Assembly (NCBI GenBank): GCA_965243565.1
Contig: OZ251571.1
Span: 1,096,704-1,160,703 of the forward strand
DNA: 64,000 nucleotides
Direction: 5' to 3'
Source of the DNA: Gammaproteobacteria bacterium
GTDB taxonomy: Bacteria; Pseudomonadota; Gammaproteobacteria; Tethybacterales; Persebacteraceae
How positions within the stretch are numbered: the stretch's first letter is position 1; every line of letters begins with the position of its first letter. The notes beneath the pieces were generated by a model that was not told where the DNA came from, did not search any database, and was given only the letters and a program-made list of their open reading frames with translations. This document shows, one piece after another, positions 8,994 through 55,129 of this stretch. A program made the position numbers and the translations under genes.

Positions 8994-9067
8994 AGTATCT
9001 TCCTTTTTTATTTAACTGCAACTTCAATAAAAACAAATTCGTATTCGTTATTATTAACGATATGGTA

Positions 9068-9139
9068 AGTTCTCATTATAAGTGCTTTAGCAGTCATTCC
9101 CGTAAAGACCTCAAACGGGGTGTTCCACCCCAGATATTT
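9068..9139 (-). mobile_element. IS30-family scar (transposase C-terminal fragment plus right-end-like sequence)
   Basis: 9092-9139 reads KYLGWNTPFEVFTGMT, like the IS30 C-terminal K.LG..TP.EVF motif, followed by GCACTTATAATGAGAACT. Confidence 0.5.
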
Positions 9140-9187
9140 TATAATATTATTCATTAACGGTATTTTATAAAGTATGCAGTACTAGGA

Positions 9188-9408: not shown

Positions 9409-9417
9409 AAGCGTAAA

Positions 9418-10482: not shown

Positions 10483-10524
10483 GACAATACTCCGTTATTT
10501 TTTATAAATTTTATTCTTGTATTA

Positions 10525-10736
10525 TATCAAAATATCTAAAAATTGCTTATCGTGTACAATAGACGATAGGATTAGTAGTTAAGCACGTCTGCGTAGTATG
10601 AAAGTATTTGTATTCATACAGGTTTCTGCAATTTTTATAAATTAATTATTCGCAGGTGCTAGATGTGCTAACTACTTGGAGTTCTTTTATTTCAAAAAAA
10701 TTGGATACTTACCATTACACAACTAAAGATTATTGT
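10525..10736. repeat. 212-bp diverged direct repeat, copy 1
   Basis: Aligns to 21002-21213 without indels, 25 mismatches by manual count (about 88% identity). Confidence 0.95.
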
Positions 10737-10882
10737 GTATTTAGTTTCAATAACCTTGAGATTTTCACCGAAGCCTGTCGCAAAGAAACATAAATGATGA
10801 TATAACTCACTCTATGGCGATGCTTTCATAAGTATAATTTCGAGCTGATGGCTATTAAACGTATTTAAACAGGAACACAACA

Positions 10883-12439: not shown

Positions 12440-13605
12440 GCGATATGAGTTTTATGGAAAAGCTGCTTGAAGGTGTTGAGGTGGAGTGGAAGGCTTTGGG
12501 GGAGGCGACTGAAATCAAAACAGGTCAAGCAGTAAGTAAACAAGTGATTTTAGATAATTCTGGCGTGTATCCTGTAATTAACAGTGGCCGGGAACCACTT
12601 GGATTTATTGATGAGTGGAATACTGAAAATGACCCCATCGGTGTGACAACTCGTGGAGCGGGTGTTGGTTCTGTAACATGGCAAGAGGGAAAATATTTTC
12701 GTGGTAATTTAAATTACTCAGTGACCATAAAATTAAGTGCACAGGTTAATACTAGATATCTATATCATTTATTACTTGAAATGCACTCTGAGATCCAATC
12801 TATATCGAGCTTTTCAGGGATACCGGCTTTAAATGCTAGTGAGTTAAAAAAACTTCCAATCCCCGTCATACCCCTCGATATCCAAACAGAAATCGTCCGC
12901 ATTTTAGACGCATTCACCGAGCTTACCACCGAGCTTACCACCGAGCTTACCGCACGGAAAAAACAATACAACTACTATCGCGACCAGTTATTAAGCTTTG
13001 AAGAGGGGGAAGTGGAGTGGAAGACGTTGGGGGATGTGGCGGAGTATTCAAAAACAGGCATAAGCTTTGAAAAACTTGATAAAACAAATTATGTGGGGGT
13101 TAATAATCTCTTGCAAAATCGAGCAGGAAAAACAGAATCTAGTCATGTGCCAATCGAAGGTAATCTAACTGTATATTGTAGTAATGATATTTTAATCGGT
13201 AATATTCGTCCTTATTTAAAGAAGATATGGCACGCTGACCGTGTTGGTGGAACAAATGGCGATGTGCTGGTTGTTCATCAAATCGATGAGACAGTAAATC
13301 CACGATATTTATATCAGGTTTTGGCTGATGAAAAATTCTTTGATTACAATATGCAGCACGCCAAAGGCGCAAAAATGCCACGTGGCAATAAAGCTAAAAT
13401 AATGGAATATCGCTTTCCAGTCCCAAAGAATCTAACAGAACAAGCCCGAATAGTCGCCATCTTAGATAAATTCGACGCCTTAACCCACTCAATCAGCGAA
13501 GGTTTACCGCGTGAAATTGAGTTTCGCCAAAAGCAATATGAGCATTATCGTGATTTACTGTTGAGCTTTCCTAAAGTTGAGACCGAAGTAAAGGCAGAGG
13601 CATAG
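12436..13605 (+). CDS. hsdS: Type I (IC-like) specificity subunit
   Basis: [14 protein letters not shown] conserved regions, two TRDs and a central TELT repeat; ATGA overlap with hsdM. Confidence 0.95.
12916..12951 (+). repeat. 12-bp tandem repeat x3 in hsdS (TELT)3
   Basis: ACCGAGCTTACC repeated three times exactly. Confidence 0.95.
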
Positions 13606-13606
13606 C

Positions 13607-14761
13607 GTGAGTCAGTCTCTAACAGAAATAGCTCAGCAGTTAAAAGATGCTGATAAAAAAGTGCAATTAATTTATGCCTTTAATGGCACAGGTAAAACGC
13701 GCCTTTCGCGTGAATTTAAACAGCTAATTGCACCAAGGTTAGCAGGGCAACCAGAATCGTCGCATAAGAAAATCCTTTATTACAATGCGTTTACGGAAGA
13801 TTTGTTTTATTGGGATAATGATTTAGATAATGATGCGCAAAGAAAGTTAAAAATTCACCCTAACGCTTTCACTAAGTGGGTATTCGAAGACCAAGGGCAA
13901 GATCAAAATATCATTACTAATTTTCAACACTACACAAATGACAAATTAACACCTCATTTTAATGCAGAATACACAGTTAATGACAGAGATAATCATGAAA
14001 TTATAATAACAGCCTTTTCTGAAGTGACCTTTACTCATGAGCGCGGAGGCGATGAAATCTCAGAAGATATAAAAATATCTAAAGGTGAAGAAAGTAATTT
14101 TATTTGGAGCATTTTTTATACATTGCTTGAGCAAGTCATTAATATATTGAATGTTAGCGAAGAAAGTAATCGTGAAACGAATCAATTTGATCAGCTAGAG
14201 TATGTTTTTATTGATGACCCTGTGACCTCATTAGATGAAAATCATTTAATTGAGCTGGCAGTAAATTTAGCAAGTTTAATTGAATCTAGTTCTTCGGAAG
14301 TTAAATTCGTTATTACGACACATAACCCGCTTTTTTATAACGTACTATATAACGAGCTCGGAACAAAAACTTGTTATATGCTAGCTAAAAATGAAGATGG
14401 CACATTTGAGTTAAATGAGAAACAAGGCGATTCAAACAAGAGTTTTTCTTATCATCTGTTCTTAAAGCAGACCATTGAGCAGGCAATTAATAACAATAGT
14501 ATTCAAAAATATCACTTTACACTGCTACGTAATTTATATGAAAAAACAGCAAACTTTCTTGGCTATCCTAAATGGTCGGAATTGTTACCCGATGATAGAC
14601 AGGTTTACCTGAATAGGATTATTCAATTTACAAGCCATTCCACATTATCTAATGAAGCGGTTGCAGAGCCAACTGATGCAGAGAAGAAAACCGTTAAGTT
14701 ATTACTGGGTCATTTAGTTAAAAACTATGGTTTTTGCCAGCAAGGAGAACAAAATGATTAA
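13607..14761 (+). CDS. prrC: PrrC-like anticodon nuclease (ABC NTPase plus HEPN)
   Basis: [38 protein letters not shown] and FTSHS motifs recalled from E. coli PrrC; lies between hsdS and hsdR as in EcoprrI. Confidence 0.9.
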
Positions 14762-17700
14762 TTACACTAAAACCATTGCAGAATCGAATAACTTTATCGT
14801 ATTAGATAAATACACCAAGTCTTGGCAAGTCAATGAATCTTATCAAAGCGAATACGATTTAGAACGAGAGTTTATTACCGATTTGGAAAATCAGGGCTAT
14901 GAATATCTACCCGAGTTAAATACGCCTGTAAAAATGCTTGCCAATGTGCGGGTGCAATTGCAAACATTGAATAATATGCAGTTTTTAGATGCAGAGTGGT
15001 CGCGCTTTGTCGAGCAATATTTAGATAAGCCCAGCGATAACAGTACCGACAAAACCCGTAAAATCCACAATGACTATATTTATGATTTTGTTTTTAATGA
15101 TGGGCAGATAAAAAACATCTATCTGTTGGATAAAAAAAATACCATACGTAATAAAATGCAGGTGATTAAACAGTTTGAGCAGACTGGTACTCAAGCCAAC
15201 CGTTACGATGTAACGGTGTTAGTGAACGGTTTGCCCTTAGTACAAATAGAGTTAAAAAAACGCGGTGTCGCTATTCGCGAAGCCTTTAACCAAATACACC
15301 GCTACAGCAAAGAAAGTTTTAATACGGATAATTCACTGTTTAAGTATTTACAGATTTTCGTAATTTCTAACGGTACCGACAGCCGTTATTTTGCCAATAC
15401 CACCAAGCGCGACAAAAACAGCTTTGATTTCACTATGAACTGGGCAACGTCGGACAATAAGCTGATTAAAGATTTAAAAGATTTTACGGCGACGTTTTTT
15501 CAAAAAAACACCCTATTGAACGTGCTAATGCATTATTCGGTGTTCGATGTCAGCAACGCCTTGTTAGTGATGCGTCCCTACCAAATTGCCGCCACCGAGC
15601 GCATTTTATGGAAAATTAACAGTGCCTATCAAGCTAAAAATTGGAGCAAAACCGAAAGCGGTGGCTATATTTGGCATACCACTGGTTCAGGTAAAACCTT
15701 AACCAGCTTTAAGGCTGCGCGTTTGGCGACCGAGTTGAATTTTATTGATAAAGTGTTTTTTGTAGTTGACCGTAAAGACCTCGATTACCAAACCATGAAA
15801 GAGTATCAGCGTTTTTCGCCCGATAGCGTTAATGGCTCGGACAGTACTGCAGGGTTAAAACGTAATCTCGATAAAAAAGATAATAAAATTATTGTTACCA
15901 CCATTCAGAAGCTCAATAACTTAATAAAGAGTGAAGGCGACCTGTCTGTTTACACCAAGCAAGTGGTGTTTATTTTTGACGAGGCGCACCGAAGCCAATT
16001 TGGCGAAGCGCAAAAAAATCTTAAAAAGAAGTTTAAAAAATATTATCAATTTGGCTTTACCGGTACACCAATTTTTCCGCAAAACGCCTTGGGTGCAGAA
16101 ACTACAGCTAGCGTGTTTGGTCGTGAATTACATTCTTATGTGATTACCGATGCCATTCGCGATGAAAAGGTACTAAAGTTTAAAGTGGACTATAACGATG
16201 TACGCCCAAAATTTAGAAAGGCTGAAACTGAGCAAGATGAGAACAATCTCGCAGTAGCAGGAAGCAGACAGGCTTTATTGCACTCCGAACGTATTGGGGA
16301 AATTTCGCAGTACATCTTGAATAACTTCAGGCGCAAAACGCATCGCTCACATGTTGGCGCAAAAGGTTTTAATGCCATGTTTGCAGTGAGCAACGTGGAT
16401 GCCGCCAAGGCTTACTATGAGGCGTTTAAGAAATTGCAAAAGGATAAGGATAGCAATAAGCAACTTAATGTTGCTACCATATTCTCGTTTGCAGCCAATG
16501 AAGAGCAAGATGCCATCGGGGAAATTATTGATGAAAGTTTTGAACTCACTGCAATGGACAGCAGCGCCAAAGAGTTTTTAAGTGCGGCAATTGGTGATTA
16601 TAATGCTCAGTTTAAAACTAACTACGGTGTTGATAGTCATTCATTTCAAAACTATTACCGTGACCTTGCAAAACGAGTTAAAGACAAAGAAGTGGATTTG
16701 CTGATTGTTGTGGGTATGTTTTTAACCGGTTTTGATGCTCCAACTTTAAACACCTTGTTTGTCGATAAAAATCTGCGTTACCACGGCTTAATACAAGCCT
16801 TTTCACGTACCAACCGTATTTTTGGTACGCCCAAGACGTTTGGCAACATTGTTACTTTTCGCAATTTAGAACAAGCCACTATTGAAGCCATTACCTTGTT
16901 TGGTGATAATAACACCAAAAATGTGGTGTTAGAGAAAAGTTATAAAGAATACATGGAAGGCTTTACCGATATAGTAACAGGTAGGGCGCGACGTGGTTAT
17001 GTGGAAATAGTTGCGGAATTAAAAGACAATTTCCCCGACCCCGATAAGATAGTTAAAGAGCAAGATAAAAAGGATTTTGCTAAATTATTTGGTGAGTATT
17101 TGCGTGTCGAAAATGTGCTGCAAAACTACGATGAGTTTGCTGGGTTAAAAGCCCTGCAAAGTATAGATATAAACGACCCTACAGCCGTAGAGAAGTTTAA
17201 AGCTAAATATTATTTAAGCGATGAAGATTTCGCCGCTATGCAAGCGATAAATGTACCAACCGAGCGCACTATTCAAGATTATCGCTCAAGTTATAACGAT
17301 ATTCGTGATTGGCTTCGTCGTGAAAAATCTGGCAATGAACAAAATGAATCTAATATTGATTGGGATGATGTAGTTTTTGAAGTGGACTTGCTCAAATCAC
17401 AAGAGATTAATCTAGACTATATTCTGGAATTAATTTTTGAGAGTCATAAAAAGCATAAAAGTAAAGCAGAATTGATTGAAGAAGTACGCCGTTTAATTCG
17501 TGCAAGTCTTGGCAACCGTGCCAAAGAAAGTTTGATAGTCGATTTTATCAACCAAACTAACTTGGATGACATTCTCGATAAAACCAGCATTATTGCCGCT
17601 TTCTTTAGCTATGCTCAACAGCAGCAAGCGGATGAGGCAAAAGAGTTAATTCACTCGGAAAACTTAAATGAAGAAGCTGCTAAGCGTTATATCACGGCAT

Positions 17701-17861
17701 CTTTAAAGCGGGAATATGCTAGCGAAAATGGCACTGAGTTAAATGCCACACTGCCAAAAATGAGCCCATTGAATCCGCAATACAAAACTAAAAAACAGTG
17801 CGTCTTCCAAAAAATGGCTGATTTTGTTGAGAAATTTAAAGGCGTTGGTGGAGTGATTTAG
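14754..17861 (+). CDS. hsdR: Type I R-M restriction subunit
   Basis: [19 protein letters not shown] nuclease motif, HTTGSGKT and DEAH. ATG 14754 follows an AAGGAG RBS at 14742. Confidence 0.96.
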
Positions 17862-26064: not shown

Positions 26065-26343
26065 ATGCTAATTATCGACTGTCCTTGGTGCGGTACAAGA
26101 GAACAAACTGAATTTTCTTATCATGGCGAAGCCCATATTGTTCGCCCCAAAGATCCTGATGCACTATCGGATACCGAGTGGGCAGATTATTTGTTTTTTC
26201 GTAAAAACCCCAAAGGTGTTCACTTTGAAAGATGGATGCATGCATCGGGTTGTCGTCGCTTTTTTAACATGGCTAGGCATACTGTAACAGGACAAATTTA
26301 CGGTAGTTATAAATTTGGTAAGACAGCTCCTAAAACTTTATAA
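26065..26343 (+). CDS. soxD: Sarcosine oxidase family delta subunit (copy 1)
   Basis: CPWCG.R...EF and W.H..GC Zn motif; 92 aa. Confidence 0.95.
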   Translation: MLIIDCPWCGTREQTEFSYHGEAHIVRPKDPDALSDTEWADYLFFRKNPKGVHFERWMHASGCRRFFNMARHTVTGQIYGSYKFGKTAPKTL

Positions 26344-26344
26344 T

Positions 26345-29300
26345 ATGAATTATCGTTTGCCCACTGGTGGTTTAATAGACCGAGCAAAAACGCTATCTTT
26401 TACCTTTAACAAAGTAAAAATGCAAGGGTATGAGGGTGATACCATTGCTTCTGCTCTTTTAGCCAACGGTGTTACCATTGTTAATCGCAGTTTTAAATAC
26501 CACCGCCCACGTGGTATTTATTCGGCTGGTGTCGAAGAACCAAATGCTATTTTCACAATCGAAATGGACGGACAAATAACACCCAATGTCCGCGCGACCA
26601 TCACCGCTTTGGTGGATGGTATGGTTATTCGCTCACAAAGCGGCTTTCCATCGGTTGGTTTTGACATCGGCAGTGGCTTACTTTCTTTGTTTTCACGGTT
26701 AATGCCGCCCGGTTTTTATTATAAAACATTTATGTTTCCTAAAAACTTATGGATGTTTTATGAAAAATTCATACGCAAAGCAGCGTCATCGGCTCCTGTG
26801 CCGAGCAAAAGCGATACCCATCTTTACGATCATAGCCATGCCCATTGTGATGTGCTGATTGTAGGCAGTGGTCCTGCTGGTATTGCAGCCGCTCTGACCG
26901 TAGCCAAAAGTGGTTTGGACCTTATTTTGGCTGAAATGTCTCCCTATTTTGGTGGTGAATTACTCAATGCACCTGCTGACGATATTAATGACAAACCTGC
27001 TACGGTATGGTTGGCAGAATCGCTTGCTTATTTGCGCTCTTGCTCTAATGTACAAGTTTTACCTCACACAACAGTGCAAGGATATCACGATTACAATTAT
27101 CTCATTGCAGAACAAACTTTGCATTCGGTGGCAAAAAAAACCAGAACCCACTGCCAAAGTCGCTTGTGGAAAATTCGTGCGCAAAAAGTTATATTGGCAA
27201 CCGGTGCTATTGAAAGACCGATGGTTTTTGCCGGAAATGATACGCCTGGTGTTATGTCGGCTTCGGCAGTGCAAACTTATATTCACCGCTATGGCGTTGT
27301 TCCCGGTAGAAGCATCCTCTTTTTTACCAATAACGACAGTGCTTACCCTGTTGCTATCCAAGCACAAAAAGCGGGTGCCAATGTCGAAATTATTGATATT
27401 CGTAAAAATGAAAACGGCCATTGGCAAGTGCAAGCGGATAAAGAGAAAATTCAAATTCATAGCAGTGCAGCAATCGTTGGTTCAATGCTAAATAATGGCG
27501 ACATTATGTCGGTACATTTGGGTAAACTTAACGGCAATACGGCTACTCATTACTCCTCTCACGCTTATCACAAAATTGCGGTGGCAGGTGGTTGGACTCC
27601 CACCGTCCATTTATTCAGTCATTCTGGCGGAAAGTTAAAGTGGAATCAACGCCTTAATGCCTTTGTGCCTGATGTTTCTAACCCTCTAAACCCTTGTGTT
27701 ACCGCTGGTGCAATCAACGGATTTTTAGATTTGGCTAAATGTCTTGAAGACGGCACTGCTTCTGCCAATGCTGCCATTCAGTTTTGCAATGGCACTGTAC
27801 CTGAACCAACACCGATAAAGACAGCCGCTAGTAACATCGAACAAGAGGCTTTACACTTGCCTATTATCCCTTCAATACATCCATTGGGTCAGGGTGATGG
27901 CAAGCATTTTGTTGATTTTATGAATGACGTAACTGCCTTTGATATTGAACTCTCCGCTCAAGAAGGGTATCAATCTGTCGAGCACATGAAACGCTATACA
28001 GCAGCCGGTTTTGGCACCGATCAAGGAAAAACGGGCAATATTAATGCGCTTCGCATTTTGGCACAAGTATTAAACAAATCACCCAGCGAAGTCGGACACA
28101 CAACATATCGCCCTAATTACACTCCTGTTTCTTATGGTGTTATTACAGGGCATGACAAACTAAGGTTATTTGCCCAAAGCCGCACCACTGCCATCGACCA
28201 TTGGCACAAACGCCATAATGTCATCTATGAAGATGTTGGGGATTGGAAACGAGCGCGTTATTTTCCTGTTAATAACGAAACAATGGATGAATCAGTATGG
28301 CGTGAATGCAAAGCAGCGAGAAAATCTGTAGCAGCAATGGATGCCTCCACTCTTGGAAAAATTGATATTCAAGGACCAGACGCTGCTCAATTTCTTGACA
28401 TGATTTACACCAATATGTTCTCCAACCTCGCCGTTGGGCGTTGTCGATATGGCATGATGCTACGAGAAACTGGCATGATTTTTGATGATGGTGTAACAGC
28501 ACGTTTGGGCGAAAATCATTTTCATCTGACAACCTCTACTGGTCATGCCGCAGCAGTAATGACATGGCTTGAAGAATGGTTACAAACAGAATGGCCTGAT
28601 TTAAAAGTTTTTTGCACCAGTGTGACGGAACAGTGGTCAGTTATTGCCTTAGTAGGCCCCAAAGCAAGAGATTTATTAAACGAAATAACCGATATTGATT
28701 TGGACAATGAATCTTTTCCTTTTATGTCATTCAAAGAAGGCAAAGTATGCGGCAGTATTAATGCACGTATTTTCCGTATTAGCTTTTCAGGTGAGACTGC
28801 ATTTGAAATTAATGTACCTGCTTGTACTGGGCTAGCGGTCTGGGAATCGTTGTTTAAATTAGGGAAAAAATACAATATTACGCCTTATGGAACAGAGGCT
28901 ATGCACGTATTGCGTGCTGAAAAGGGTTATATCATCGTCGGACAAGATTCTGATGGGACAATGACACCGTTAGATTTGGGCTTGGATTGGATGCTATCCA
29001 AAAAGAAAAAAGATTACCTTGGCAGACGATCGCTCGCTCGTCCTGATATGTTACGCAAAGGACGGATGCAGTTTGTTGGCTTGTTGCCAGATGATCCAAA
29101 AGCGGTTATTACCGAAGGTTCACAAATTGTATCGAAAGAAAACGCTAAACCACCAACCACCACACAAGGTTTTGTTACCTCTAGTTACATGAGCCCTACT
29201 TTGGAGCGATCATTTGCATTGGCAATGATTGACGATGGGTTTAACCGTCATGGTGAAACCATTTATGCCGTAACGATGGACAATAAAACCATCGCTGCCC

Positions 29301-29353
29301 AAATTACTGGGACTGTCTTTTGGGACAAAGAAGGAATAGCATTGCGTGGATAA
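26345..29353 (+). CDS. soxA: Sarcosine oxidase family alpha subunit (copy 1)
   Basis: RSFKYHRPRG, GSGPAG, KRYT..GFGTDQGK and GcvT-fold C-terminus; ATG 26345 just after the soxD stop. Confidence 0.95.
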   Translation: MNYRLPTGGLIDRAKTLSFTFNKVKMQGYEGDTIASALLANGVTIVNRSFKYHRPRGIYSAGVEEPNAIFTIEMDGQITPNVRATITALVDGMVIRSQSGFPSVGFDIGSGLLSLFSRLMPPGFYYKTFMFPKNLWMFYEKFIRKAASSAPVPSKSDTHLYDHSHAHCDVLIVGSGPAGIAAALTVAKSGLDLILAEMSPYFGGELLNAPADDINDKPATVWLAESLAYLRSCSNVQVLPHTTVQGYHDYNYLIAEQTLHSVAKKTRTHCQSRLWKIRAQKVILATGAIERPMVFAGNDTPGVMSASAVQTYIHRYGVVPGRSILFFTNNDSAYPVAIQAQKAGANVEIIDIRKNENGHWQVQADKEKIQIHSSAAIVGSMLNNGDIMSVHLGKLNGNTATHYSSHAYHKIAVAGGWTPTVHLFSHSGGKLKWNQRLNAFVPDVSNPLNPCVTAGAINGFLDLAKCLEDGTASANAAIQFCNGTVPEPTPIKTAASNIEQEALHLPIIPSIHPLGQGDGKHFVDFMNDVTAFDIELSAQEGYQSVEHMKRYTAAGFGTDQGKTGNINALRILAQVLNKSPSEVGHTTYRPNYTPVSYGVITGHDKLRLFAQSRTTAIDHWHKRHNVIYEDVGDWKRARYFPVNNETMDESVWRECKAARKSVAAMDASTLGKIDIQGPDAAQFLDMIYTNMFSNLAVGRCRYGMMLRETGMIFDDGVTARLGENHFHLTTSTGHAAAVMTWLEEWLQTEWPDLKVFCTSVTEQWSVIALVGPKARDLLNEITDIDLDNESFPFMSFKEGKVCGSINARIFRISFSGETAFEINVPACTGLAVWESLFKLGKKYNITPYGTEAMHVLRAEKGYIIVGQDSDGTMTPLDLGLDWMLSKKKKDYLGRRSLARPDMLRKGRMQFVGLLPDDPKAVITEGSQIVSKENAKPPTTTQGFVTSSYMSPTLERSFALAMIDDGFNRHGETIYAVTMDNKTIAAQITGTVFWDKEGIALRG

Positions 29354-29930
29354 TTCATTTAATATCAACCTACACACACCTGCCGCCAGTTTAGAACCTG
29401 TCGATACTGATTATTTCAAACTATCTGAAATACCACTGATGGGGCGAATCATTATTCGCGGCAAAGCCGAAGATAATGATTTTTTACAAGCTGCCCAAAC
29501 CGTATTATCAGTAGCCCTGCCTTTAACTGCCAACACCAGTGTTGAGGGCAAGGATAAGAATCGTGTTTTTTGGTTAGGACCTGACGAATGGATGGTGTGG
29601 ACACCAACTTTGGCACGAAGTGAAGCCCTATTAGAAGAACTAACCCAAGCGTTTACCACTCTGCATACGGCTTGTGTTAATGTAAGCGACTACTATACCA
29701 CTATAAAAATAAGCGGCAAGCATGCCACATCGGTTTTGGCTTATGGCTGCCCATTGGATTTGCGAGAAAAATCATTTCGCCCCACCGATTGTGCTCAATC
29801 ATTGTTTCGTCACACCGGTATTTTTATTTATAAAGTTGATAAAGACTGCTACCACATTCAAGTACGCTGGAGTTTTACCGAGTATTTATGGGAATTTTTT
29901 AGCACATCTGCTAGTACGATTAAAGAATAA
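29346..29930 (+). CDS. soxG: Sarcosine oxidase family gamma subunit (copy 1)
   Basis: WLGPDEW and GCPLDL motifs; overlaps the soxA stop. Confidence 0.9.
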   Translation: MDNSFNINLHTPAASLEPVDTDYFKLSEIPLMGRIIIRGKAEDNDFLQAAQTVLSVALPLTANTSVEGKDKNRVFWLGPDEWMVWTPTLARSEALLEELTQAFTTLHTACVNVSDYYTTIKISGKHATSVLAYGCPLDLREKSFRPTDCAQSLFRHTGIFIYKVDKDCYHIQVRWSFTEYLWEFFSTSASTIKE

Positions 29931-30003: not shown

Positions 30004-30573
30004 TTAATTATTTATCTCGTAACAAAATTGGTTTGCACTCATAATTAATAGTTCTGCCAATGATTTGGCAAAACCGCGCGGTAGCAAAATTGTAAAGCAC
30101 TGTTGCGAATTAATATCATCATTTCTAAATATAATAACGCGACTATGATGAAAAGCGGTTGAAGCCATTGCACCGACTTTAAAAGCGTTGTCTCGTAAAT
30201 CAATCGGTAAGTGTCTATTTAGCACGCCAGCGGCTTGTTTGCCAGATAACTTAATACCCACATGAGAAGCGGAAACATCTAAACAGTAAACGCCTTCTTG
30301 CTCTATGTTCATGGCTTGCTTATGGATAATCAATATTTTAAGTGGTTCGATACGCAACACATGATGATCATTTTTTTCGTCATAATACGTTGTTCGTGGT
30401 GGTGGCAGTGTAATATTTAACGGTGGTTTTTCATCAAATGCAACTTGTAAAATCGACAACGGCGTAAGTTCGGATAAAGTTAATTCCGACAAAAAACCAC
30501 TTTCAACTGTCAATTTGCCATTAAAATAAAGCCCTGTTTGCCAATTAATATATTTTTTTGTTGTATTATCCAC
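30004..30573 (-). CDS. soxG: Sarcosine oxidase family gamma subunit (copy 2)
   Basis: DVSASH...LSG...PIDLR..AF...A.T motif; overlaps the soxA2 stop. Confidence 0.85.
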   Translation of the reverse strand: MDNTTKKYINWQTGLYFNGKLTVESGFLSELTLSELTPLSILQVAFDEKPPLNITLPPPRTTYYDEKNDHHVLRIEPLKILIIHKQAMNIEQEGVYCLDVSASHVGIKLSGKQAAGVLNRHLPIDLRDNAFKVGAMASTAFHHSRVIIFRNDDINSQQCFTILLPRGFAKSLAELLIMSANQFCYEINN

Positions 30574-33500
30574 GCATTTTACCTCCGCTTGGGTCGTACA
30601 TATGTGGAGATACTACTTCTATTGCTTCTGGGCTTTGACCTTTACTACGAACGGGATCAGCAGCGACCAATGGCTTATCATTCCACGCATTATACCCACC
30701 ATTAATAAATCCTATCCCTATCCAATGCCCCAATGCCGGTGAATGTGTAACAGATGTTATATAGCCTACACCAAGCCCTTTTACATTGCCTTGTTCACAT
30801 AAGATTGCACCAGCATTAAATTTTTTACTTTTATCTTTGGGAAATATTCCAACTACTTGAGGGCGGTCGGCTTGTTTTAATTGCTCACGGTTGGCAAGTA
30901 CACTGCCCACATATGATTTTGTTGTTGATGCCATTTTACCAAAGCCAGCGTCGTCTATGGTCACACGCCCATCTAATTCTGCTCCTGTTACATGCCCTTT
31001 TTCAATACGTAGCGTTCCCAACGCCTCTAAACCGTACAAACAGCCATCAAGTTCCTTTGCTTTTTGCCATAAGGTATCAATTACTTCTTCGGCATGCGTC
31101 GAAGGGACATAGATTTCAAATGCGCGCTCACCCGAAAAACTAACACGCCCTATACGTCCTATGACTCCATTTTTTAAAGGAGTGTCGATATGCCCCATAA
31201 AGGGTAAGTTTTCGTCACTGATAACATCGGGATTTTCAAGGCAACTGGCAAGAACTTGACGCGATAATGGACCTGCAATGGCAGCGGCAGCCCATTGATC
31301 AGATACCGTGCTTAAATGGACTTTTAAGTCTGGCCAGCGAATTTGCACACATTCTTCAAGGAATGCCATAATCTTTGCAGCATTCGCCGTTGTCGTTGTC
31401 ATAAAATAATCGTTTTCTGCTAAACGCCACGTGGTACCATCATCCATCACCATGCCATCGTCACGCAACATAACGCCATAACGCAACTTGCCAACGGGTA
31501 ATTTAGCAAAATTATTAGAATATATTCGGTTAATTAAAGTGGTTGCATCGACACCTTGAATAGCAATCTTTCCCAAAGAAGTAACATCACAAATGCCAAC
31601 AGTTTTACGCACAGTTTCTGCCTCACGACAATAGGCAGTGGCAAAATCTTCGCCGTCTTTAGGGTAATACCACGGACGTTGCCAAAGCCCCGCCATAGTC
31701 ATCACCGCCCCTTGTTTTAAATTCCATTCGTGAAAAGCGGTACGCCGTAAAGTACGAAAATGACTACCGGTGTTTCTACCTGCCAAAGCACCTATGCTAA
31801 CAGAAGTATAAGGCGGGCGAAAAGTGGTTGTTCCGACCTGTCCAATGGTTTTACCGAGTTCGTTTGCCAAAATAGACAAACCTGTGACATTGCCCATTTT
31901 ACCTTGATCATTTGCCATGCCCAATGTGGTGTAGCGTTTTAAATGCTCTACCGAAACAAAACCTTCTTGTTTGGCTAGGCGAATATCTGATGCGGTAACA
32001 TCGTGTTGAAAATCGACAAATGCATTTTTTTTAGATGAGTCGATTTCAAACAATGGTTCAATGGGTGTAACCCAACCGCCTATGGTTGGAATATTATCAG
32101 GCACACTATCATCAGTGGTTATTGTGGGTGCTACATTGGCTTGTTTATTGATGTTTAAAACAGCTGCTTTTGCTACTTGCTTGCCGGAGGTAATACAGTC
32201 TTTAGACTGCCACAAGCCACACGCACTACCAGCAATATGCACATGATTTGGTAGTGATGAAGGTGCAATAAAGCATTGATTTTCGTTGTTCCATACTGGC
32301 TTTATGCCCAAATGCGATACCAAATTAACGACCGGTGACCAACCACCTGATACCAATAATAAATCGCATTCTGCAGTTTCGCCATACGAATACCAATTTT
32401 CATGGCTAGAATGGCGGCCGATAACACCAATCGATTTCACCATACGAAAGCCAGAAGTTGAACTAATCGATGTGTTGCCCTGAAAATGCACACCTGCATT
32501 TTTTGTGGTAGCGGCTAAATCTTGGGATATGCTTGGACGAATATCGAATATGGTAACTTCAGCACCAGCTACTTGAAGGTCAACTGCTGTTTGATATACC
32601 GAATCATTATTGGTTGTTATTATGATTTTATTGCCAGTTAATAGACCATGACGATTTAAATAATGACCGGCAGCATTCACCGTCATAACACCAGGCTTGT
32701 CATTATTGGTAAAGACCAAATTACGTTCTATGGCACCAGTTGCAATAATAATCTGTTTGGCACGCATTATCCAAAATCGTTCTCGAGGTTGGCTAACAGC
32801 AGGGTCAGCCAAATGATCTGTTAATTTTTCAAGCAAACCAACGCAAGCATGATCGTATAATCCAAAAGCAGTGGTACGCTTCATCATGCTGATGTTTAAA
32901 GTGCTTACTTCTTTTAACAAATTATTACGTAAAGACGTAAGTTTAGAATCACTCAGGCTATTTCCACCAAATTCAAAATCTTGCTCTACCAATACAACAT
33001 CAACACCAGAACGGGCAGCAGCAATAGCAGCCGATAAACCAGCTATCCCAGAGCCCACCACCAAGACATCGCAAAATGCATTACAATGTTCGTATGATGC
33101 AGGGTCAGGCTCGCGCGATGCTTTGCCCATACCAGCGGCACGACGAATTATCTGCTCATACCACATCCATATTTTAGTGCCTTTGCCATGCTCAAATGGC
33201 GGTAACCCCATAAACGTTTTGTAATAAAAACCAGCAGATAAAAAGCGACTGAATAAACTATTAATTTCGTTAATATCATAGCGAACATTGGGTATGGCAT
33301 TTTGCCCTTTGGCAACCAAACCTTGATAAATTTCTTGCGTGGTTGCACGCACATTGGGCGTTGTGTAAGCATCATTACCAATGGTTACCAAAGCTCCAGA
33401 TTCTTCAACACCTGCCGACATAACGCCTCGGGGGCGATGATATTTAAAACTCCTTGCAAGTACTTTTTCGTTGCAAGACAGTAAAGCCGATGCCAGTGTA

Positions 33501-33598
33501 TCCCCTTTAAAGCCAGACATTCGCTGTCCGTCCCAAGTAAAGGATAACGGTTTGGTTCTATCAATGATTCCACCTTCTTTTAATCGCGTTGCCGTCAC
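30566..33598 (-). CDS. soxA: Sarcosine oxidase family alpha subunit (copy 2)
   Basis: RSFKYHRPRG, GSGIAG, KRYTTLGMANDQGK and GcvT fold; GTG start. Confidence 0.95.
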   Translation of the reverse strand: MTATRLKEGGIIDRTKPLSFTWDGQRMSGFKGDTLASALLSCNEKVLARSFKYHRPRGVMSAGVEESGALVTIGNDAYTTPNVRATTQEIYQGLVAKGQNAIPNVRYDINEINSLFSRFLSAGFYYKTFMGLPPFEHGKGTKIWMWYEQIIRRAAGMGKASREPDPASYEHCNAFCDVLVVGSGIAGLSAAIAAARSGVDVVLVEQDFEFGGNSLSDSKLTSLRNNLLKEVSTLNISMMKRTTAFGLYDHACVGLLEKLTDHLADPAVSQPRERFWIMRAKQIIIATGAIERNLVFTNNDKPGVMTVNAAGHYLNRHGLLTGNKIIITTNNDSVYQTAVDLQVAGAEVTIFDIRPSISQDLAATTKNAGVHFQGNTSISSTSGFRMVKSIGVIGRHSSHENWYSYGETAECDLLLVSGGWSPVVNLVSHLGIKPVWNNENQCFIAPSSLPNHVHIAGSACGLWQSKDCITSGKQVAKAAVLNINKQANVAPTITTDDSVPDNIPTIGGWVTPIEPLFEIDSSKKNAFVDFQHDVTASDIRLAKQEGFVSVEHLKRYTTLGMANDQGKMGNVTGLSILANELGKTIGQVGTTTFRPPYTSVSIGALAGRNTGSHFRTLRRTAFHEWNLKQGAVMTMAGLWQRPWYYPKDGEDFATAYCREAETVRKTVGICDVTSLGKIAIQGVDATTLINRIYSNNFAKLPVGKLRYGVMLRDDGMVMDDGTTWRLAENDYFMTTTTANAAKIMAFLEECVQIRWPDLKVHLSTVSDQWAAAAIAGPLSRQVLASCLENPDVISDENLPFMGHIDTPLKNGVIGRIGRVSFSGERAFEIYVPSTHAEEVIDTLWQKAKELDGCLYGLEALGTLRIEKGHVTGAELDGRVTIDDAGFGKMASTTKSYVGSVLANREQLKQADRPQVVGIFPKDKSKKFNAGAILCEQGNVKGLGVGYITSVTHSPALGHWIGIGFINGGYNAWNDKPLVAADPVRSKGQSPEAIEVVSPHMYDPSGGKMRG

Positions 33599-35189
33599 TG
33601 TTTATCTTTTCTTATTTGGTCGTTAGTTTCATCATCAGCACCGTCAAATATAGAATGCTCTTGTGTAGAAATGGATGCCCATTCAGGCAGTCTTTCGCCT
33701 TCCGATCTTTCAGGTAATGTATTTAATTCTGGTTCACATTCATTGCTTGATTCAATTCCTACGGTACTTACTTCAAGGTCCGTATTATTTTCTGTAGATG
33801 ATGCAGATTCAGATGATTCAGGTTCGTTGGATATAGCCCATGCAGGAACTTTTTCCGTCTTGGGTTTTTCAATAACATCTCCTGCGGCTATCGCTTCTTC
33901 TATCGTTTCTTCAGTAAGTACAGAGCTAGATGGTGCAGACTCACTGTCAGCAACCCATGTTGGAATATGAGGATTCCCGCCCGCAGGCAATGGCTCTGCA
34001 ATAACATCTCCCGCAGCTATCGCTTCTTCTATCGTTTCTTTAGAAAGTACAGAGCTAGATGGTGCAGACTCACTGTCAGCAACCCATGTTGGAATATGAG
34101 GATTCCCGCCCGCAGTCCTAGGCTCTGCAATAACATCTCCCGCAGCTATCGCTTCTTCTATCGTTTCTTTAGAAAGTACAGAGCTAGATGGTGCAGACTC
34201 ACTGTCAGCAACCCATGTTGGAATATGAGGATTCCCGTCCGCAGTCCTAGGCTCTGCAATAACATCTCCCGCAGCTATCGCTTCTTCTATCGTTTCTTTA
34301 GAAAGTACAGAGCTAGATGGTGCAGACTCACTGTCAGCAACCCATGTTGGAATATGAGGATTCCCGTCCGCAGTCCTAGGCTCTGCAATAACATCTCCCG
34401 CAGCTATCGCTTCTTCTATCGTTTCTTTAGAAAGTACAGAGCTAGATGGTGCAGACTCACTGTCAGCAACCCATGTTGGAATATGAGGATTCCCGTCCGC
34501 AGTCCTAGGCTCTGCAATAACATCTCCCGCAGCTATCGCTTCTTCTATCGTTTCTTTAGAAAGTACAGAGCTAGATGGTGCAGACTCACTGTCAGCAACC
34601 CATGTGGAATATGAGGATTCCCGTCCGCGTGGCTCTGCAATAACATCTCCCGCGTGGCTTCTTCCGTCGCTTCTTCCGTGGCTTCTTCTGTGGCTTCTTC
34701 TGTGGCTTCTTCTGTTTCGGGTGATGGTTGCTTGCCTACATTGTCTATAACAGCAATTTCATCATTTTCTTCAGGATTATCCGTATCGCTGCTATTGTCT
34801 ATTGTATCGAGTACAAGTGTAACTTTAGCAGGAATATCGACAGCTGCTTGGAATGTCTCTACTGTTTCAATAGAGTTGATTGGTTTTGAATCTAATTGAT
34901 TGATTGTAAAGTTATTTTGTGCAAATACATCCAGTGCAGGATTGGCTGCTTTTACCGAAAAAATTTCATGCGTTAACGTATCGCGCTCAACCAATAACCA
35001 CAAGCGACAGCCATTGCTGTGATGCCATGTTTCAATTTGTCGACCGCAAATATTCTCACGTAAAAAAATCGCATCATGCCATTGATCAATGGTTGCATCT
35101 AATGCAGGATACGCTACTGTGCCATCCCCACCATACGAAAATTCGCTATGATCGCGCTCACCACAAAACGGACAATTTATTATTAACAT
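33595..35189 (-). CDS. soxD: Sarcosine oxidase family delta subunit (copy 2) with long acidic repeat tail, frameshifted in this sequence
   Basis: The N-terminal ~90 aa is SoxD (CPFCG, WHHSNGC). The repeat frame is stop-free from about 34750 to a TGA at 33595 that overlaps the soxA GTG start. Joining the two needs one net frameshift near 34600-34655. Confidence 0.72.
33871..34653 (-). repeat. 129-bp tandem repeat, about 6 copies (43-aa unit)
   Basis: GGAATATGAG recurs at 33962, 34091, 34220, 34349, 34478 and 34606. Unit: TADGNPHIPTWVADSESAPSSSVLSKETIEEAIAAGDVIAEPR. Confidence 0.97.
34653..34712 (-). repeat. 12-bp tandem repeat x5 (EEAT)5
   Basis: GAAGAAGC(C/G)AC(A/G) five times in the SoxD frame. 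Confidence 0.95.
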
Positions 35190-35192: not shown

Positions 35193-36461
35193 TTATCCAT
35201 GTAGTTTTGGGTCTGGTCCCGCTCCCCGCTCGTCTAGCATAACGCCTTTTCTATATCTATCTAGAGTATGATTGGCAATAACATCATGTGGTCTATCGTT
35301 GGCAATTAAATCCGCAAAATACCAGCCAGAAGCCGGTGTGGCTTTAAAGCCACCGTAATTCCAGCCTGCATTTAAATACAAATTATCCAATGGTGTTTTG
35401 CAAATAAAAAATGAACCGTCCATCGACATATCCATAACACCAGACCAATGTCGCAATAAACGTATCCGCCCCAAACAAGGCAATATAGACATCGCGCATT
35501 CTGCAACGTCCTGTACTATTGGCAAAGCACCGCGCTGTGCGTAAGATTTATACCATTCTAAGTCACCACCAAAAACCATTCCACCCTTATCGGATTGAGA
35601 AATATAAAAGTGAGCACCCGCAACACCAAAGACCACGACATGATCCAAAAGTGGTTTAAGCGGTTCGCTAACAAAAGCCTGTAAACAATGGGTTTCTATT
35701 GGTAATTGTTGTAATCCTGCCATATTCCACAATTGCGTGGTATGCCCCGCCACTGCAAAACCAACTTTTGTGGCACCTATTTTGCCTCGATTGGTTTGTA
35801 CAGCGGTAATGTTTTGACCAGTACGCTCTACGCCGGTGACTTCGCAGTTTTGTATAATGTCCACACCCAATGAATCCGCCGCCCTTGCATATGCCCATGC
35901 CACTGCATCATGACGAGCCGTACCACCCCGCCGCTGAACAGCCGCACCGTAAATAGGAAAACGTGCATCAAGCGAATAATTAAGATGCGGAATGTTTTCT
36001 TTTAGTTCGTCCAATCCCCATAACTCGGCATCAGTATCGGTTAATGCCATCGTGTTATATCGTCGTGCCGCACCATTGACTGCGGTGGGAGTATGCAATA
36101 AAGAGACGTGGGCACGCTGGCTAAACATAACGTTGTAATTTAAATCGTGCGACATTTCTTCCCACAGTTTTAGAGAATGTTCGTAAAACTGACGATTGCC
36201 CTGTAAAAAATAATTAGATCTAACAATGGTGGTGTTTCTGCCAGCGTTACCGCCACCAATCCACGATTTTTCAAGAACCGCAACACTCTTTACTTGATGA
36301 TTCTTTTTTAAATAATAAGCCGTTGCAAGCCCATGTAAACCACCTCCCACAATAACAATGTCATAATGTTGTTGTGGCTCTGGATCTTTCCACTGACGGT
36401 CCCAACCCTTTTGATTATTAAGACCATTACGAAAAACCTGCCATGCATTGAACGTACCCAT
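35193..36461 (-). CDS. soxB: Sarcosine oxidase family beta subunit
   Basis: GGGLHGLATAYYL, GNAGRNTTIVRSNY, GTARHDAVAW and GGFKATP motifs. Confidence 0.96.
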   Translation of the reverse strand: MGTFNAWQVFRNGLNNQKGWDRQWKDPEPQQHYDIVIVGGGLHGLATAYYLKKNHQVKSVAVLEKSWIGGGNAGRNTTIVRSNYFLQGNRQFYEHSLKLWEEMSHDLNYNVMFSQRAHVSLLHTPTAVNGAARRYNTMALTDTDAELWGLDELKENIPHLNYSLDARFPIYGAAVQRRGGTARHDAVAWAYARAADSLGVDIIQNCEVTGVERTGQNITAVQTNRGKIGATKVGFAVAGHTTQLWNMAGLQQLPIETHCLQAFVSEPLKPLLDHVVVFGVAGAHFYISQSDKGGMVFGGDLEWYKSYAQRGALPIVQDVAECAMSILPCLGRIRLLRHWSGVMDMSMDGSFFICKTPLDNLYLNAGWNYGGFKATPASGWYFADLIANDRPHDVIANHTLDRYRKGVMLDERGAGPDPKLHG

Positions 36462-36633: not shown

Positions 36634-37551
36634 ATGCAAATGGTAAAACAAAAAATGTCCTTAGCCGAATGGGGATTAATCGTTTTGCTTTCAATTTTTT
36701 GGGGTGGTTCGTTTTTCTTTGTTGAAATTATTATTGAAACCATCAAACCACTTACGGCAGTTTTTTTGCGGGTTACTATTGCCGCTATTGCCCTTTGGAT
36801 GATGACATTAATAGCCAAAAGATGCATTCCCACTTCGTTATTGATATGGCGTGATTTTTTTATAATGGGACTTATTAATAACGTTATCCCTTTTTCGTTA
36901 ATTGTATGGGCACAAGTTTATATTAATTCTGGTTTGGCTTCTATTTATAATGCAACAACACCTATCTTTACGTTGGTAGTGGCAGGTTTGTTACTAGACG
37001 ATGAAAAAATTACAGGAACTAAAATTATTGCGCTTGTGTTGGGGCTTATAGGAGTGATTGTTTTAATAGACCCTTCATCGATAAAATTAATGGGCAATAC
37101 CAATTTATTGGCACAATTGGCGGTGCTAGTTGCTGCTGTTTCATACGCATTTGCCAGTGTGTTTGGCCGGCGGTTTCGCAAAATGCAATTACCACCTATG
37201 ACAGTGGCAGCAGGGCAAGTTACCGCTTCTTCTTTATGGATGCTGCCATTGGTATTATTGATAGACCCATTACCAGAAGCACAAGATTTTACTCTACCAG
37301 TGATTGCATCTATTTTGTGTCTCGCCTTAATTTCTACCGCATGGGCTTATATGATTTACTTTAAGGTATTATCATCAGCGGGGGCTACTAATTTAACCTT
37401 GGTAACGTTTCTTGTACCGATTTCTGCTATTTTAGCAGGCATTACTTTGTTGGATGAACATTTAACAAGCAGTCATATCGTGGGAATGGGGATTATTACA
37501 TTGGCATTGTTATGCATCGATGGGCGGATAATTGCCAGATTACGAAAATAA
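36634..37551 (+). CDS. DMT/EamA family transporter
   Basis: Two EamA halves, about 10 TM helices, INSGLASIYNATTP motif. Confidence 0.92.
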   Translation: MQMVKQKMSLAEWGLIVLLSIFWGGSFFFVEIIIETIKPLTAVFLRVTIAAIALWMMTLIAKRCIPTSLLIWRDFFIMGLINNVIPFSLIVWAQVYINSGLASIYNATTPIFTLVVAGLLLDDEKITGTKIIALVLGLIGVIVLIDPSSIKLMGNTNLLAQLAVLVAAVSYAFASVFGRRFRKMQLPPMTVAAGQVTASSLWMLPLVLLIDPLPEAQDFTLPVIASILCLALISTAWAYMIYFKVLSSAGATNLTLVTFLVPISAILAGITLLDEHLTSSHIVGMGIITLALLCIDGRIIARLRK

Positions 37552-41418: not shown

Positions 41419-42654
41419 TTATGAAAACAACAAATGAGATAATGAACCACCGGGTGGTACATTATTGTCGTTCATTTTTGCGACGATGTGCATGAGTTGT
41501 TTTCGGATAGTTGCTAATTTTTCGGCATCCACTGCATGACCGAGAGGGTTTTCAATAGTACCATTAACATTTTTAGCAAAACGCTCAATGAGTTTCATCA
41601 TGTCATCTAATGCTTGAATAGGACGTGTTACTTTAGGCACATCCAACGAAAATAATATAGTTTGAATATTATTATTTGATTGTATATTAGGGACGGCTTT
41701 AAAAATTTCTTCACTATCACGTCTAAAGGTGGCTTGTTTGTTACCCACCGTCATCTTATTGAGCGAGAGATACTCCTCAATTTGTTCTAAGGTATATGTC
41801 TGTGGCATACGAACGCGAAACTCTACTATGAAATCAACAGACTCACAAAAAGCATCCAGCACTTCTACTCGATTTAATGTTGAAGAAATCGTAGGAAAAA
41901 TCGCATGAATTTTCATTCTTTCGGCAAAACCTCTTCCCTCTTCTTCGATTAATTTTATTTGATCTTTGCTTAATTTTCCGCCTCGGTCTGCCAACGGCAA
42001 TGCCAACAACAAATAGCGAAAAGAAGATTTCCCTAGTAACTTCCATACTTTGGCGGTTTCGTCATAGCCTAATATTCGATAACAGTTAATGCGGTTTTTG
42101 TTATAAAAATCGCAGACTTGTTGCATAACCGATATGCCAATATTCTGTTCGGCGTAAAAACGAATAATATAGCAAAATTCTTTGGCATAAAGCAACGACT
42201 CTGGCGGTTCTGGTAAGTTTGGCGGAATAAATTCTTCTATGAGTAGTTTTTCTTGCACAAGCGTTTCGGATGGTTCTGATACATTTGACGTCTCATTGGT
42301 CACGCCGTTTTCTTGAGTTTCTAGTGATCGATGCTCGGTCAGTGGGCTGTCTGGTGAAACATCGTATTCGTTGGCTTGTTCAAAAGTTCTGTCGGCATCG
42401 TCATTTGATTGGGCAGATAGACGATTTTTAATCTCGCATATTGATTGGGATTGCGCTTTCTCTTTTTTCTGTTTTCTTTTGGATAGGGAAAAAGAAGGGT
42501 CTTTTTGTTTTCGAAAATTTATATTTGGCGACAATAAAATTTCGGAATTCTCGTTTCTTTTTTTCCACCAAAGAACACAAAAATAACCGACCACCGCAAT
42601 TACACTAGCCAATATGACAACACTAATTATTATTAATATTATTGAAATATCCAT
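41419..42654 (-). CDS. zipA: ZipA-like cell division protein
   Basis: Single N-terminal TM, charged linker, C-terminal FtsZ-binding-like domain (FSLDVP...PI..LD.M); directly downstream of smc. Confidence 0.65.
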   Translation of the reverse strand: MDISIILIIISVVILASVIAVVGYFCVLWWKKRNENSEILLSPNINFRKQKDPSFSLSKRKQKKEKAQSQSICEIKNRLSAQSNDDADRTFEQANEYDVSPDSPLTEHRSLETQENGVTNETSNVSEPSETLVQEKLLIEEFIPPNLPEPPESLLYAKEFCYIIRFYAEQNIGISVMQQVCDFYNKNRINCYRILGYDETAKVWKLLGKSSFRYLLLALPLADRGGKLSKDQIKLIEEEGRGFAERMKIHAIFPTISSTLNRVEVLDAFCESVDFIVEFRVRMPQTYTLEQIEEYLSLNKMTVGNKQATFRRDSEEIFKAVPNIQSNNNIQTILFSLDVPKVTRPIQALDDMMKLIERFAKNVNGTIENPLGHAVDAEKLATIRKQLMHIVAKMNDNNVPPGGSLSHLLFS

Positions 42655-53506: not shown

Positions 53507-55129
53507 ATGGGATGGTTTACTTCTAAAAAAATAATTATCAGACCGCGTACAGCGGCAGGGGATATTTTTGACTTTGCCCCCCCGAAAGCGGTGCGCCCGA
53601 TTCCACCTCTTAAATCTTTTTTGTTTTTTATCATCATCCTACTGTGGATGAGTTTTGGTATTTTCGACAGAGATCCATGGAAGCCAGAAGAAACATTTTT
53701 ATCAGCAATCGCATTGCAAATGTCACAAACGGGGTTGGTATTAAACCCGATGTTACTCGGTGAGTTTTTTACAAACCACCCGCCTTTGTATTTATGGATT
53801 ATCTCTTTATTTGCTAATAGTACTCCACTAGAAATTCACGAAGGCGCAAGACTATCCAACATTGCCATTTTATCTCTTGCGTTTTATTTTATATTTTATA
53901 GCACCAAAAAAAATTATGGAATTCGTATTGGCTGGCTTTCTGTTTTATTGGTTATTGGTACCGTTGGATTTCTTATTCGAGGGCATCAACTCAATTTTGG
54001 CATTGCCGCTTTTGTTGGAGTTGCCATTGTTATCTATGGCTATACCATTGCTTCCAATCGACTAATTTATAACACTTATTCGTCACTTAAAGGCGTTTTT
54101 GCCATTAGTGCAGGTGTTCTATTTTTACTGTTTTCTATCGGTATATTTGCCGCTTTTGCAACATTAATCGCAGTTTGTTTGCATTTCTTTAGACAAAAAT
54201 CACTGCTGTTTTTACTTCCTTTTATACTGGTTATTATAATGCCAGCGGCATTATGGGTAACGTCCGATACCCTTGCGTATAAACCCAGACAAGAACTATT
54301 TATCTTGTCAGATAATTTAGATCTGCCAAAACATTTTACTAATTACTTAATTTTAGTGGCGTGGTCGTTGTTTCCCACATTGCCTTTGGCAATTATAGCG
54401 GTGCGGTTACAATCACAAAAAAACGATGGCTTTTTTAATTTCTTAATCACACTCAGTTGCCTGCTTTTTGCTTATACTTTTATACTGGACACAAACGAAG
54501 AAAATTTATTTATTCTATTGCCTAGCATTACCATATTAGCCGCTCGTGCCTTGCAAAAAACTTCTGATAACACGGGCTATATCTTGGATGCATTTGCCTT
54601 TTTGGTAGTGGGCTTACTGCTGGTTGTAGGAATATGGTTATTTACACTGTCAATGCTTAGCGGTGTAAATTGGTTTGACAGTTCAATTTCAGAAATATTC
54701 GGTGAATTTGATTTTATTTATCCAAATGTGATAAAAATAATAGCAGCAGTTGCATTAACCTTGTTATGGATTAAACTGCTTTTTCGTTCTCGTCGCTCAA
54801 ATGAAAGAGCCATTGTTAATTGGTCTTGTGGCGTTACTGTGGCTTGGATATTATTTTGCTTGTTGCTGTTACCTTCGTTTGATGCCAGAAAATCGTATCG
54901 CTCCATTGGTACTGCTATTTATAACCATACTGAAGGTAACTGCATAGAAGCAACAAATATTAATAAACATCTTCGTTCTCAATTGGTTTATTTTGGTAAT
55001 ATCATCGCTACTACCAATGCCAATACCCAAGCGCAATGCTCATTTTTATTATCACAAGACAAACAAGGAAACGTTGTTTGGCAAGGTGGGCGCATTAATC
55101 ACAACCAATACTATCTTATAAAACGGTAA
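53507..55129 (+). CDS. ArnT/PMT (GT39-like) membrane glycosyltransferase
   Basis: RDPWKPEE and GEFFTNHPPLY N-terminal motifs, many TM helices. Confidence 0.7.
   Translation: MGWFTSKKIIIRPRTAAGDIFDFAPPKAVRPIPPLKSFLFFIIILLWMSFGIFDRDPWKPEETFLSAIALQMSQTGLVLNPMLLGEFFTNHPPLYLWIISLFANSTPLEIHEGARLSNIAILSLAFYFIFYSTKKNYGIRIGWLSVLLVIGTVGFLIRGHQLNFGIAAFVGVAIVIYGYTIASNRLIYNTYSSLKGVFAISAGVLFLLFSIGIFAAFATLIAVCLHFFRQKSLLFLLPFILVIIMPAALWVTSDTLAYKPRQELFILSDNLDLPKHFTNYLILVAWSLFPTLPLAIIAVRLQSQKNDGFFNFLITLSCLLFAYTFILDTNEENLFILLPSITILAARALQKTSDNTGYILDAFAFLVVGLLLVVGIWLFTLSMLSGVNWFDSSISEIFGEFDFIYPNVIKIIAAVALTLLWIKLLFRSRRSNERAIVNWSCGVTVAWILFCLLLLPSFDARKSYRSIGTAIYNHTEGNCIEATNINKHLRSQLVYFGNIIATTNANTQAQCSFLLSQDKQGNVVWQGGRINHNQYYLIKR

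Follow-up and report, generated by a model that had tools for sequence, protein, structure and literature searches.

A young tandem-repeat extension of a soxD gene, probably evolved as coding sequence and parted from the SoxD domain by one base

Two kinds of described system come closest to the locus analysed here. One is the delta subunit of the heterotetrameric sarcosine oxidase TSOX (2GAG and 2GAH chain D, 1VRQ and 1X31 chain D; PF04267) and the other comprises EPYC1, CsoS2 and CcmM, the multivalent linker proteins of enzyme condensates. The locus, soxD2, lies in a stretch of 64,000 nucleotides (nt) from a gammaproteobacterium of the Persebacteraceae (GCA_965243565.1, contig OZ251571.1, positions 1,096,704 to 1,160,703), which as a whole we call the window and from whose first letter all coordinates are counted; soxD2, its long acidic extension and the operon around it are on the minus strand. 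SoxD2 resembles TSOX delta over the whole 80-residue domain and in the gene order soxB-soxD-soxA-soxG; an overlap of the stop codon with the soxA start is likewise present, though in a frame other than that of the SoxD domain as assembled. It differs in length: TSOX delta and its relatives have 70-128 residues, whereas SoxD2 has 214 as assembled and 531 once a single base is restored, both well outside the small size (~90-130 residues) of the family. We consider it probable, at roughly 60%, that the extension evolved as a translated, lineage-specific tandem-repeat part of soxD2 which is now either frameshifted or mis-assembled by one base.

The SoxD domain (residues 1-80; 34950-35189) is in frame 1, as judged both by its PF04267 match and by its best codon log-likelihood. 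It runs in the same frame into an acidic linker (residues 81-158; 34716-34949), an orphan sequence whose first ~16 residues look, by eye and unscored, loosely like the tail of the closest ortholog described below. A 12-nt array of GAAGAAGCCACR follows (34654-34715; 5.2 copies by Tandem Repeats Finder, TRF), which reads (EEAT)5 in frame 1 and is akin to the GAAGAAGCGATA (EEAI) segment found within every unit of a second, longer array. The period of this second array is 129 nt (33870-34653; 6.1 copies with 97% matches by TRF), and it opens with a partial, degenerate unit (34606-34653) that reads REMLLQSHADGNPHIP and carries deletions of 4 nt and 5 nt relative to the canonical unit. At the sites of the two deletions stands the 9-mer GCCACGCGG, present twice in this degenerate region (34606-34660), and the pattern resembles one templated (copy-like) mutation more than a pair of independent ones. 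Five full units of 129 nt, or 43 residues, come next (33961-34605); they read TWVADSESAPSSSVLSKETIEEAIAAGDVIAEPRTADGNPHIP in frame 3 and start at 34605, 34476, 34347, 34218 and 34089, with the 129-nt spacing exact five times. Units 0 to 2 are identical in DNA and later units gather substitutions, such that unit 5 differs from the canonical unit at 10 positions, 4 of them synonymous in frame 3. A divergent sixth unit then leads into a unique acidic end (33598-33960), likewise in frame 3, and the frame closes in a GTGA (33595-33598) whose TGA (33595-33597) overlaps the GTG start of soxA2 (33598-33596). Further copies of the 129-nt unit are absent from the rest of the window. TADGNPHIPTWVADSESAPSSSVLSK is a predicted tryptic peptide of the tail.

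The original prediction had read the SoxD domain and everything downstream of it as a single uninterrupted frame from 33595 to 35189. Its components (acidic linker, (EEAT)5, about six 129-nt units and a unique acidic end) are all borne out by TRF and by comparison of the units, but the frame itself is not, because the span measures 1595 nt (3n+2) and so cannot be one open reading frame (ORF). The SoxD domain, linker and (EEAT)5 are in frame 1 and the 129-nt units and unique end in frame 3, with the break at 34600-34607, where the assembly has CCACATGG in place of the CCAACATGG of the five other units; one A is missing at 34605, and its absence shifts the reading from frame 1 to frame 3. As assembled, soxD2 ends at a TAG (34545-34547) and its product is 214 residues long, the last 21 being an out-of-frame reading of unit 0 in which the frame-1 log-likelihood falls to -0.43. 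The break also cuts the first IPTWV, leaving HIP in frame 1 and TWV in frame 3, and frame 3 offers no ATG, GTG or TTG for ~770 nt, until a TTG at 33990. Restoring the base at 34605 yields the 531-residue protein. The GTGA overlap, from which translation of the whole had been argued, is present and ties the frame of the tail to the soxD frame of relatives; it belongs, however, to frame 3 only and not to the frame of the SoxD domain.

Slippage mutations and consensus errors alike tend to gather in near-identical repeats, and we see roughly even odds between a very recent genuine frameshift, by which the tail is being lost, and a one-base consensus error within a near-identical repeat. A real deletion would have to be very recent, given that the rest of the ~1 kb of frame 3 is undecayed, and it would uncouple soxA2 from upstream translation. 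Exact-product look-ups for SoxD2, SoxB2 and the 131-residue ORF that begins at the TTG led to no other contig that could serve as an independent assembly, and the clusters are singletons. The exact 214-residue SoxD2 is missing from a collection of 15 billion proteins in which SoxB2, SoxA2, SoxG2, SoxD1, TypA and the 131-residue tail ORF are all present. There are hints here that the source annotation treats soxD2 as irregular, with a pseudogene flag or a different call.

That the extension evolved as coding sequence is suggested by several properties of the tail itself. With the redundancy of the array removed, one canonical unit, the sixth unit and the unique end amount to 164 codons; frame 3 runs through them without a stop, the two remaining frames have 8 and 25 stops, and 5e-5 of shuffles leave at least one of the three frames open. 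A codon-usage log-likelihood trained on 26 other genes of the window favours frame 1 in the SoxD domain (+0.19), in the linker (+0.37) and in the EEAT array (+0.81); it turns to frame 3 in the unit (+0.31) and at the unique end (+0.37, or +0.39 for 33598-33960 with the sixth unit), and antisense ORFs have lower or negative values. In strength these values equal that of the SoxD domain. The two repeat periods, 12 nt and 129 nt, are both divisible by 3. The 4-nt and 5-nt deletions of the degenerate first unit compensate for one another, frame 1 being regained after eight codons, which fits selection for the frame. Finally, the soxD stop overlaps the soxA start as [AG]TGA in 128 of 169 distinct soxD genes from relatives, and since the frame-3 stop sits in just such an overlap, frame 3 at the 3′ end would be the ancestral soxD frame. 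No minus-strand promoter or terminator was found within the tail, and there are no Rfam elements in the window.

We propose that an extension of ~440 codons was gained at the C-terminus of soxD2 in this lineage, growing by tandem duplication in the style of replication slippage, in units of 12 nt (EEAT) and 129 nt (43 residues) that would have been laid over older, diverged material now seen as the linker and the unique end. The extension would have been continuous with soxD and have ended at the ancestral overlap of soxD stop and soxA start, such that translation of soxA2 would have been coupled to it. Its product would form a highly acidic appendage (net charge ~-80, pI ~4.1), probably largely flexible, in which each unit contributes one short amphipathic helix (KETIEEAIAAGDVI) and one hydrophobic-Pro-x-Trp motif. 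In the present state a single-base deletion would part the SoxD domain in frame 1 from the tail in frame 3, and the products predicted from the assembly are a 214-residue SoxD2 and a tail frame that could not be started. Judging by its architecture, the tail, if functional, would most likely bind a partner in several copies or maintain the solubility of the complex.

The extension appears to be confined to this lineage. Of 233 SoxD ORFs taken from 320 related loci in genomes and metagenomes, 232 have 70-128 residues, and the remaining one, of 211 residues, was set aside as an artefact; the original prediction's statement that no SoxD like this one is known thus holds for the collections searched. 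An exhaustive HMMER search of 1.84 billion representative proteins returned for the tail only the window's own 131-residue ORF and repeat-inflated matches, and no homologue was found in a word-indexed set of 5.8 billion proteins, GTDB genome contigs, JGI metagenomes or PDB sequences. Pfam and NCBIfam likewise gave no accepted match to the tail, and the linker has no homologues in the word-indexed set or the JGI metagenomes. A match of the tail to DUF4258 was rejected as a repeat artefact, there being no single significant stretch. Two TPR proteins, P0005 and P0009, can be aligned to the tail without gaps and share its 43-residue period, with the EEAIA and WVA segments coinciding. The tail is nonetheless unlike TPR in having no TPR match in Pfam or NCBIfam and in carrying Ser, Glu or Pro at the positions of the second helix, and homology was rejected because WD40 and BNR proteins reach similar E-values, which points to repeat-inflated scores. 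Both proteins are TPR proteins on STAND NTPases; they are the sole sequence lead to the origin of the unit and we judge them to be noise.

The TypA of the source genome is at most 74% identical to any GTDB protein, with best matches in Cellvibrionales and Endozoicomonas-like gammaproteobacteria. The closest orthologous operon is on Logan contig L321, which shares the EamA / soxB-D-A-G synteny and encodes a SoxB and a SoxA that are 82% and 64% identical, respectively. The SoxD of this operon (3287-3676 of the contig; P0001) has 129 residues, ends in ATGA and carries a 47-residue basic tail rich in Asn, Pro, Ala and Lys, with no acidic repeats. Short basic tails rich in Lys, Ala and Pro are also seen in a second SoxD, on L018 (8001-8387; 128 residues), and in P0002 (132 residues). 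Like SoxD2, then, all three proteins have low-complexity C-terminal extensions, of which that of L321 belongs to a syntenic ortholog, but these are 30-50 residues long, basic and Lys/Ala/Pro-rich, they have neither long repeats nor the Trp motif, and they bear no sequence relation to the SoxD2 tail. On the strength of these unrelated short tails, the SoxD C-terminus seems permissive to low-complexity growth, the content of which is not conserved.

A number of observations weigh against the view that the extension evolved as a translated part of soxD2. Three identical units mark a very recent expansion, so long-term selection on the repeats is not demonstrable, and the presence of the tail in one genome only means that no comparative test of it is possible. 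The 531-residue fusion is conceptual only and is not encoded as assembled. No other gene in the window is broken and long open frames make up 92% of it, and for this reason a random sequencing error precisely at 34605 is not to be expected a priori; the same 92%, together with the large genes that match their models end to end (HsdR, SMC, TypA, DnaG and both SoxA copies), indicates an assembly that is not error-ridden and a genome that is not rich in pseudogenes. Descent of the linker or the unique end from degenerate copies of the unit is not significant in Smith-Waterman comparisons against shuffles (P ~0.15). Composition and a charge-hydropathy plot speak for the view, with the whole tail and, in the plot, the unique end on the disordered side of the boundary; against it, one unit taken alone comes out marginally ordered. 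The [ILV]PxW motif appears to be more than chance and also speaks for the view, since the 91-residue non-repeat end has its two Trp residues in this motif and ~1e-4 of shuffles do the same; a reservation is that the motif was defined after the data had been seen. Single-sequence AlphaFold models were made of the tail and of the 214-residue product, and place one 9-residue helix (KETIEEAIA), with low confidence, in each unit; no weight is given to them because the same mode, run without an alignment, gives a pLDDT of ~30 even for the known SoxD fold.

Of the alternatives, the one that survives best supposes that the frame is intact in the organism, the break being an assembly error, and that the 531-residue SoxD2 acts as an EPYC1- or CsoS2-like multivalent scaffold which clusters the oxidase or recruits a partner. 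With the base restored there are eight [ILV]PxW motifs, just as had been predicted: six IPTWV, one per unit, and VPAWA and LPEWA in the non-repeat end. The motif is absent from the 16,624 residues of the 35 other ORFs of the window. Near-identical units that each bear a helix and a Trp motif, the retention of the motif in the diverged end, a frame that is otherwise perfectly kept and the retained GTGA coupling to soxA all favour a scaffold. With EPYC1, CsoS2 and CcmM the tail shares tandem near-identical units, each with a short helix or candidate binding motif, in a low-complexity chain. The restored protein would have a net charge of -80 and an isoelectric point (pI) of 4.1, and the tail alone has a net charge of -51 with 21% Ser+Thr and 8% Pro. 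In this acidity the tail departs from the three linker proteins, which are basic, and it is moreover joined to an enzyme subunit, not a protein in its own right. The likeness is architectural only: there is no homology or sequence relation to any known scaffold protein, the tail is not conserved, and it is an orphan of one genome whose closest ortholog has an unrelated short basic tail. The intact reading frame expected of multivalent linker proteins is also missing, being broken by the frameshift at 34605 in the only sequence at hand. The window holds neither genes for a partner nor any for a shell or other compartment, and microcompartment and encapsulin genes are absent from it. We therefore regard a scaffold as unlikely. 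In the variant of this idea that follows from an assembly error, an acidic tail with eight motifs and six amphipathic helices would bind the oxidase, or a partner in folate and one-carbon metabolism, and so cluster an enzyme that produces formaldehyde and H2O2; this seems quite doubtful to us and, if true, would describe a newly born scaffold attached to an enzyme. Any effect of the tail on the working of the enzyme is speculative at this stage, the architecture of repeat and motif being what suggests a scaffold at all.

The opposite proposal is that the tail was never translated and is a non-coding minisatellite inserted between a normal soxD and soxA. It would explain why the 214-residue ORF ends ahead of most of the array, and it sits well with an array that is both an orphan and very young. 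It struggles with the low probability (5e-5) of the open frame arising by chance, with the coding-like codon usage and with unit lengths that are multiples of 3. Neither would it account for a frame-3 stop that falls exactly at the conserved soxD/soxA overlap, or for a SoxD domain that, unlike that of every relative, has no stop of its own near residues 90-130. We think there is only a slender chance that this proposal is correct.

A more radical possibility is that the whole array, its copy number and borders included, is an artefact of assembly. Stretches such as these 774 nt of near-identical repeats are hard to assemble, and the first unit contains three indels. Against this, the 129-nt spacing is exact throughout, the substitutions grade 3′-ward into unique, coding-like sequence, and the contig is 1.68 Mb long (1,684,200 bp) with no other disruption in the window. 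An artefact on this scale is highly improbable.

Two further explanations can be dismissed briefly. The 131-residue ORF that begins at TTG (33595-33990, minus strand) appears as a separate protein, P0003, in a public collection, and might be taken to show that the tail is an independent small gene, but its TTG was created by one variant of unit 4 (AGG to TTG), no convincing ribosome-binding site is apparent by reading of the sequence, and the open frame, of like repeat content, runs 770 nt further upstream; P0003 is in all likelihood a piece of the soxD2 tail, and we give an independent gene almost no credence. A programmed -1 ribosomal frameshift could in principle join frame 1 to frame 3, as the frames overlap by ~210 nt and a -1 shift anywhere there would yield the fusion, yet the overlap (34545-34770 scanned) contains no X XXY YYZ heptamer or homopolymer, no Rfam element is present and the break amounts to one base by which this unit differs from its five sisters, which makes such a shift barely conceivable.

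By its domain match SoxD2 is a divergent member of the SoxD family: PF04267 covers residues 3-80 (E 1.4e-27; 96 bits, the gathering score being 27), and the NCBIfam model TIGR01374 gives 93.5 bits, under its cut-off of 116.5. The domain aligns over its full length with the delta chains 2GAG_D and 1VRQ_D, with conservation of the CPxCG and H-x3-C positions; C6, C9, H56 and C60 of SoxD2 align with the corresponding residues of both chains, and these Cys-Cys-His-Cys positions we take to be the zinc ligands of TSOX delta.

The genes on either side complete the operon, in the order soxB2-soxD2-soxA2-soxG2, with soxD2 between soxB2 and soxA2 as expected of a SoxD family member. The beta-subunit gene soxB2 (35193-36461) scores 599 bits with TIGR01373 (cut-off 529) and has a full-length match to Pfam DAO, and its TAA stop is 3 nt ahead of the soxD2 ATG (35189). 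Downstream, the alpha-subunit gene soxA2 (30566-33598) reaches 1166 bits with TIGR01372 (cut-off 1164) and homologues cover its residues 1-1010. It starts with GTG, the sequence upstream of which is only weakly purine-rich, and SoxA2 with this GTG (33598-33596) as its start is present in a public protein collection. The gamma-subunit gene soxG2 (30004-30573) is divergent, scoring 57.6 bits with TIGR01375 (cut-off 144). Gene content and order identify soxD2 as the predicted delta-subunit gene of a soxBDAG-type operon for an N-methyl amino acid oxidase, an assignment made with models that resolve the subfamily level only and do not distinguish true sarcosine oxidase from N-methylglutamate dehydrogenase. 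The soxBDAG and mgdABCD operons are often confused (PMC13236597).

A second set of sox genes lies close by on the plus strand. As the original prediction stated, its soxD1 encodes 92 residues (26065-26343); soxD1, soxA1 and soxG1 together occupy 26065-29930 with no adjoining soxB, downstream of genes for an MFS transporter and TypA, and are convergent with the complete soxB2-D2-A2-G2 operon. Because the proteins of copy 1 score above the NCBIfam cut-offs and SoxD2 and SoxG2 score below them, the two sets may use different N-methyl substrates (compare PMC13236597). Two transporter genes are also found in the window, one of the BCCT betaine/choline type (189-1991, plus strand) and one of the EamA family (36634-37551, plus strand), the latter divergent from soxB2 in a pairing that recurs in L321. 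The presence of these transporters fits an uptake of methylated amines that would feed the oxidase. Elsewhere in the window, an island of low GC content (5912-17861; 0.33-0.37 GC) contains a McrB-like GTPase and a type I restriction-modification system, in which hsdM and hsdR were identified with two ORFs between them. A 540-residue ORF (53507-55129, plus strand) has no Pfam match at E<=1e-5 and no NCBIfam match at E<=1e-10, and a 411-residue ORF that adjoins smc (41419-42654, minus strand) shows no more than a weak match to the C-terminus of ZipA.

If the tail of SoxD2 is or was translated, it would represent a clean and very young case in which tandem duplication at the free end of a metabolic enzyme subunit gave rise to a long low-complexity region that carries a recurring short motif. 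It would also show how fast such an appendage can break again.

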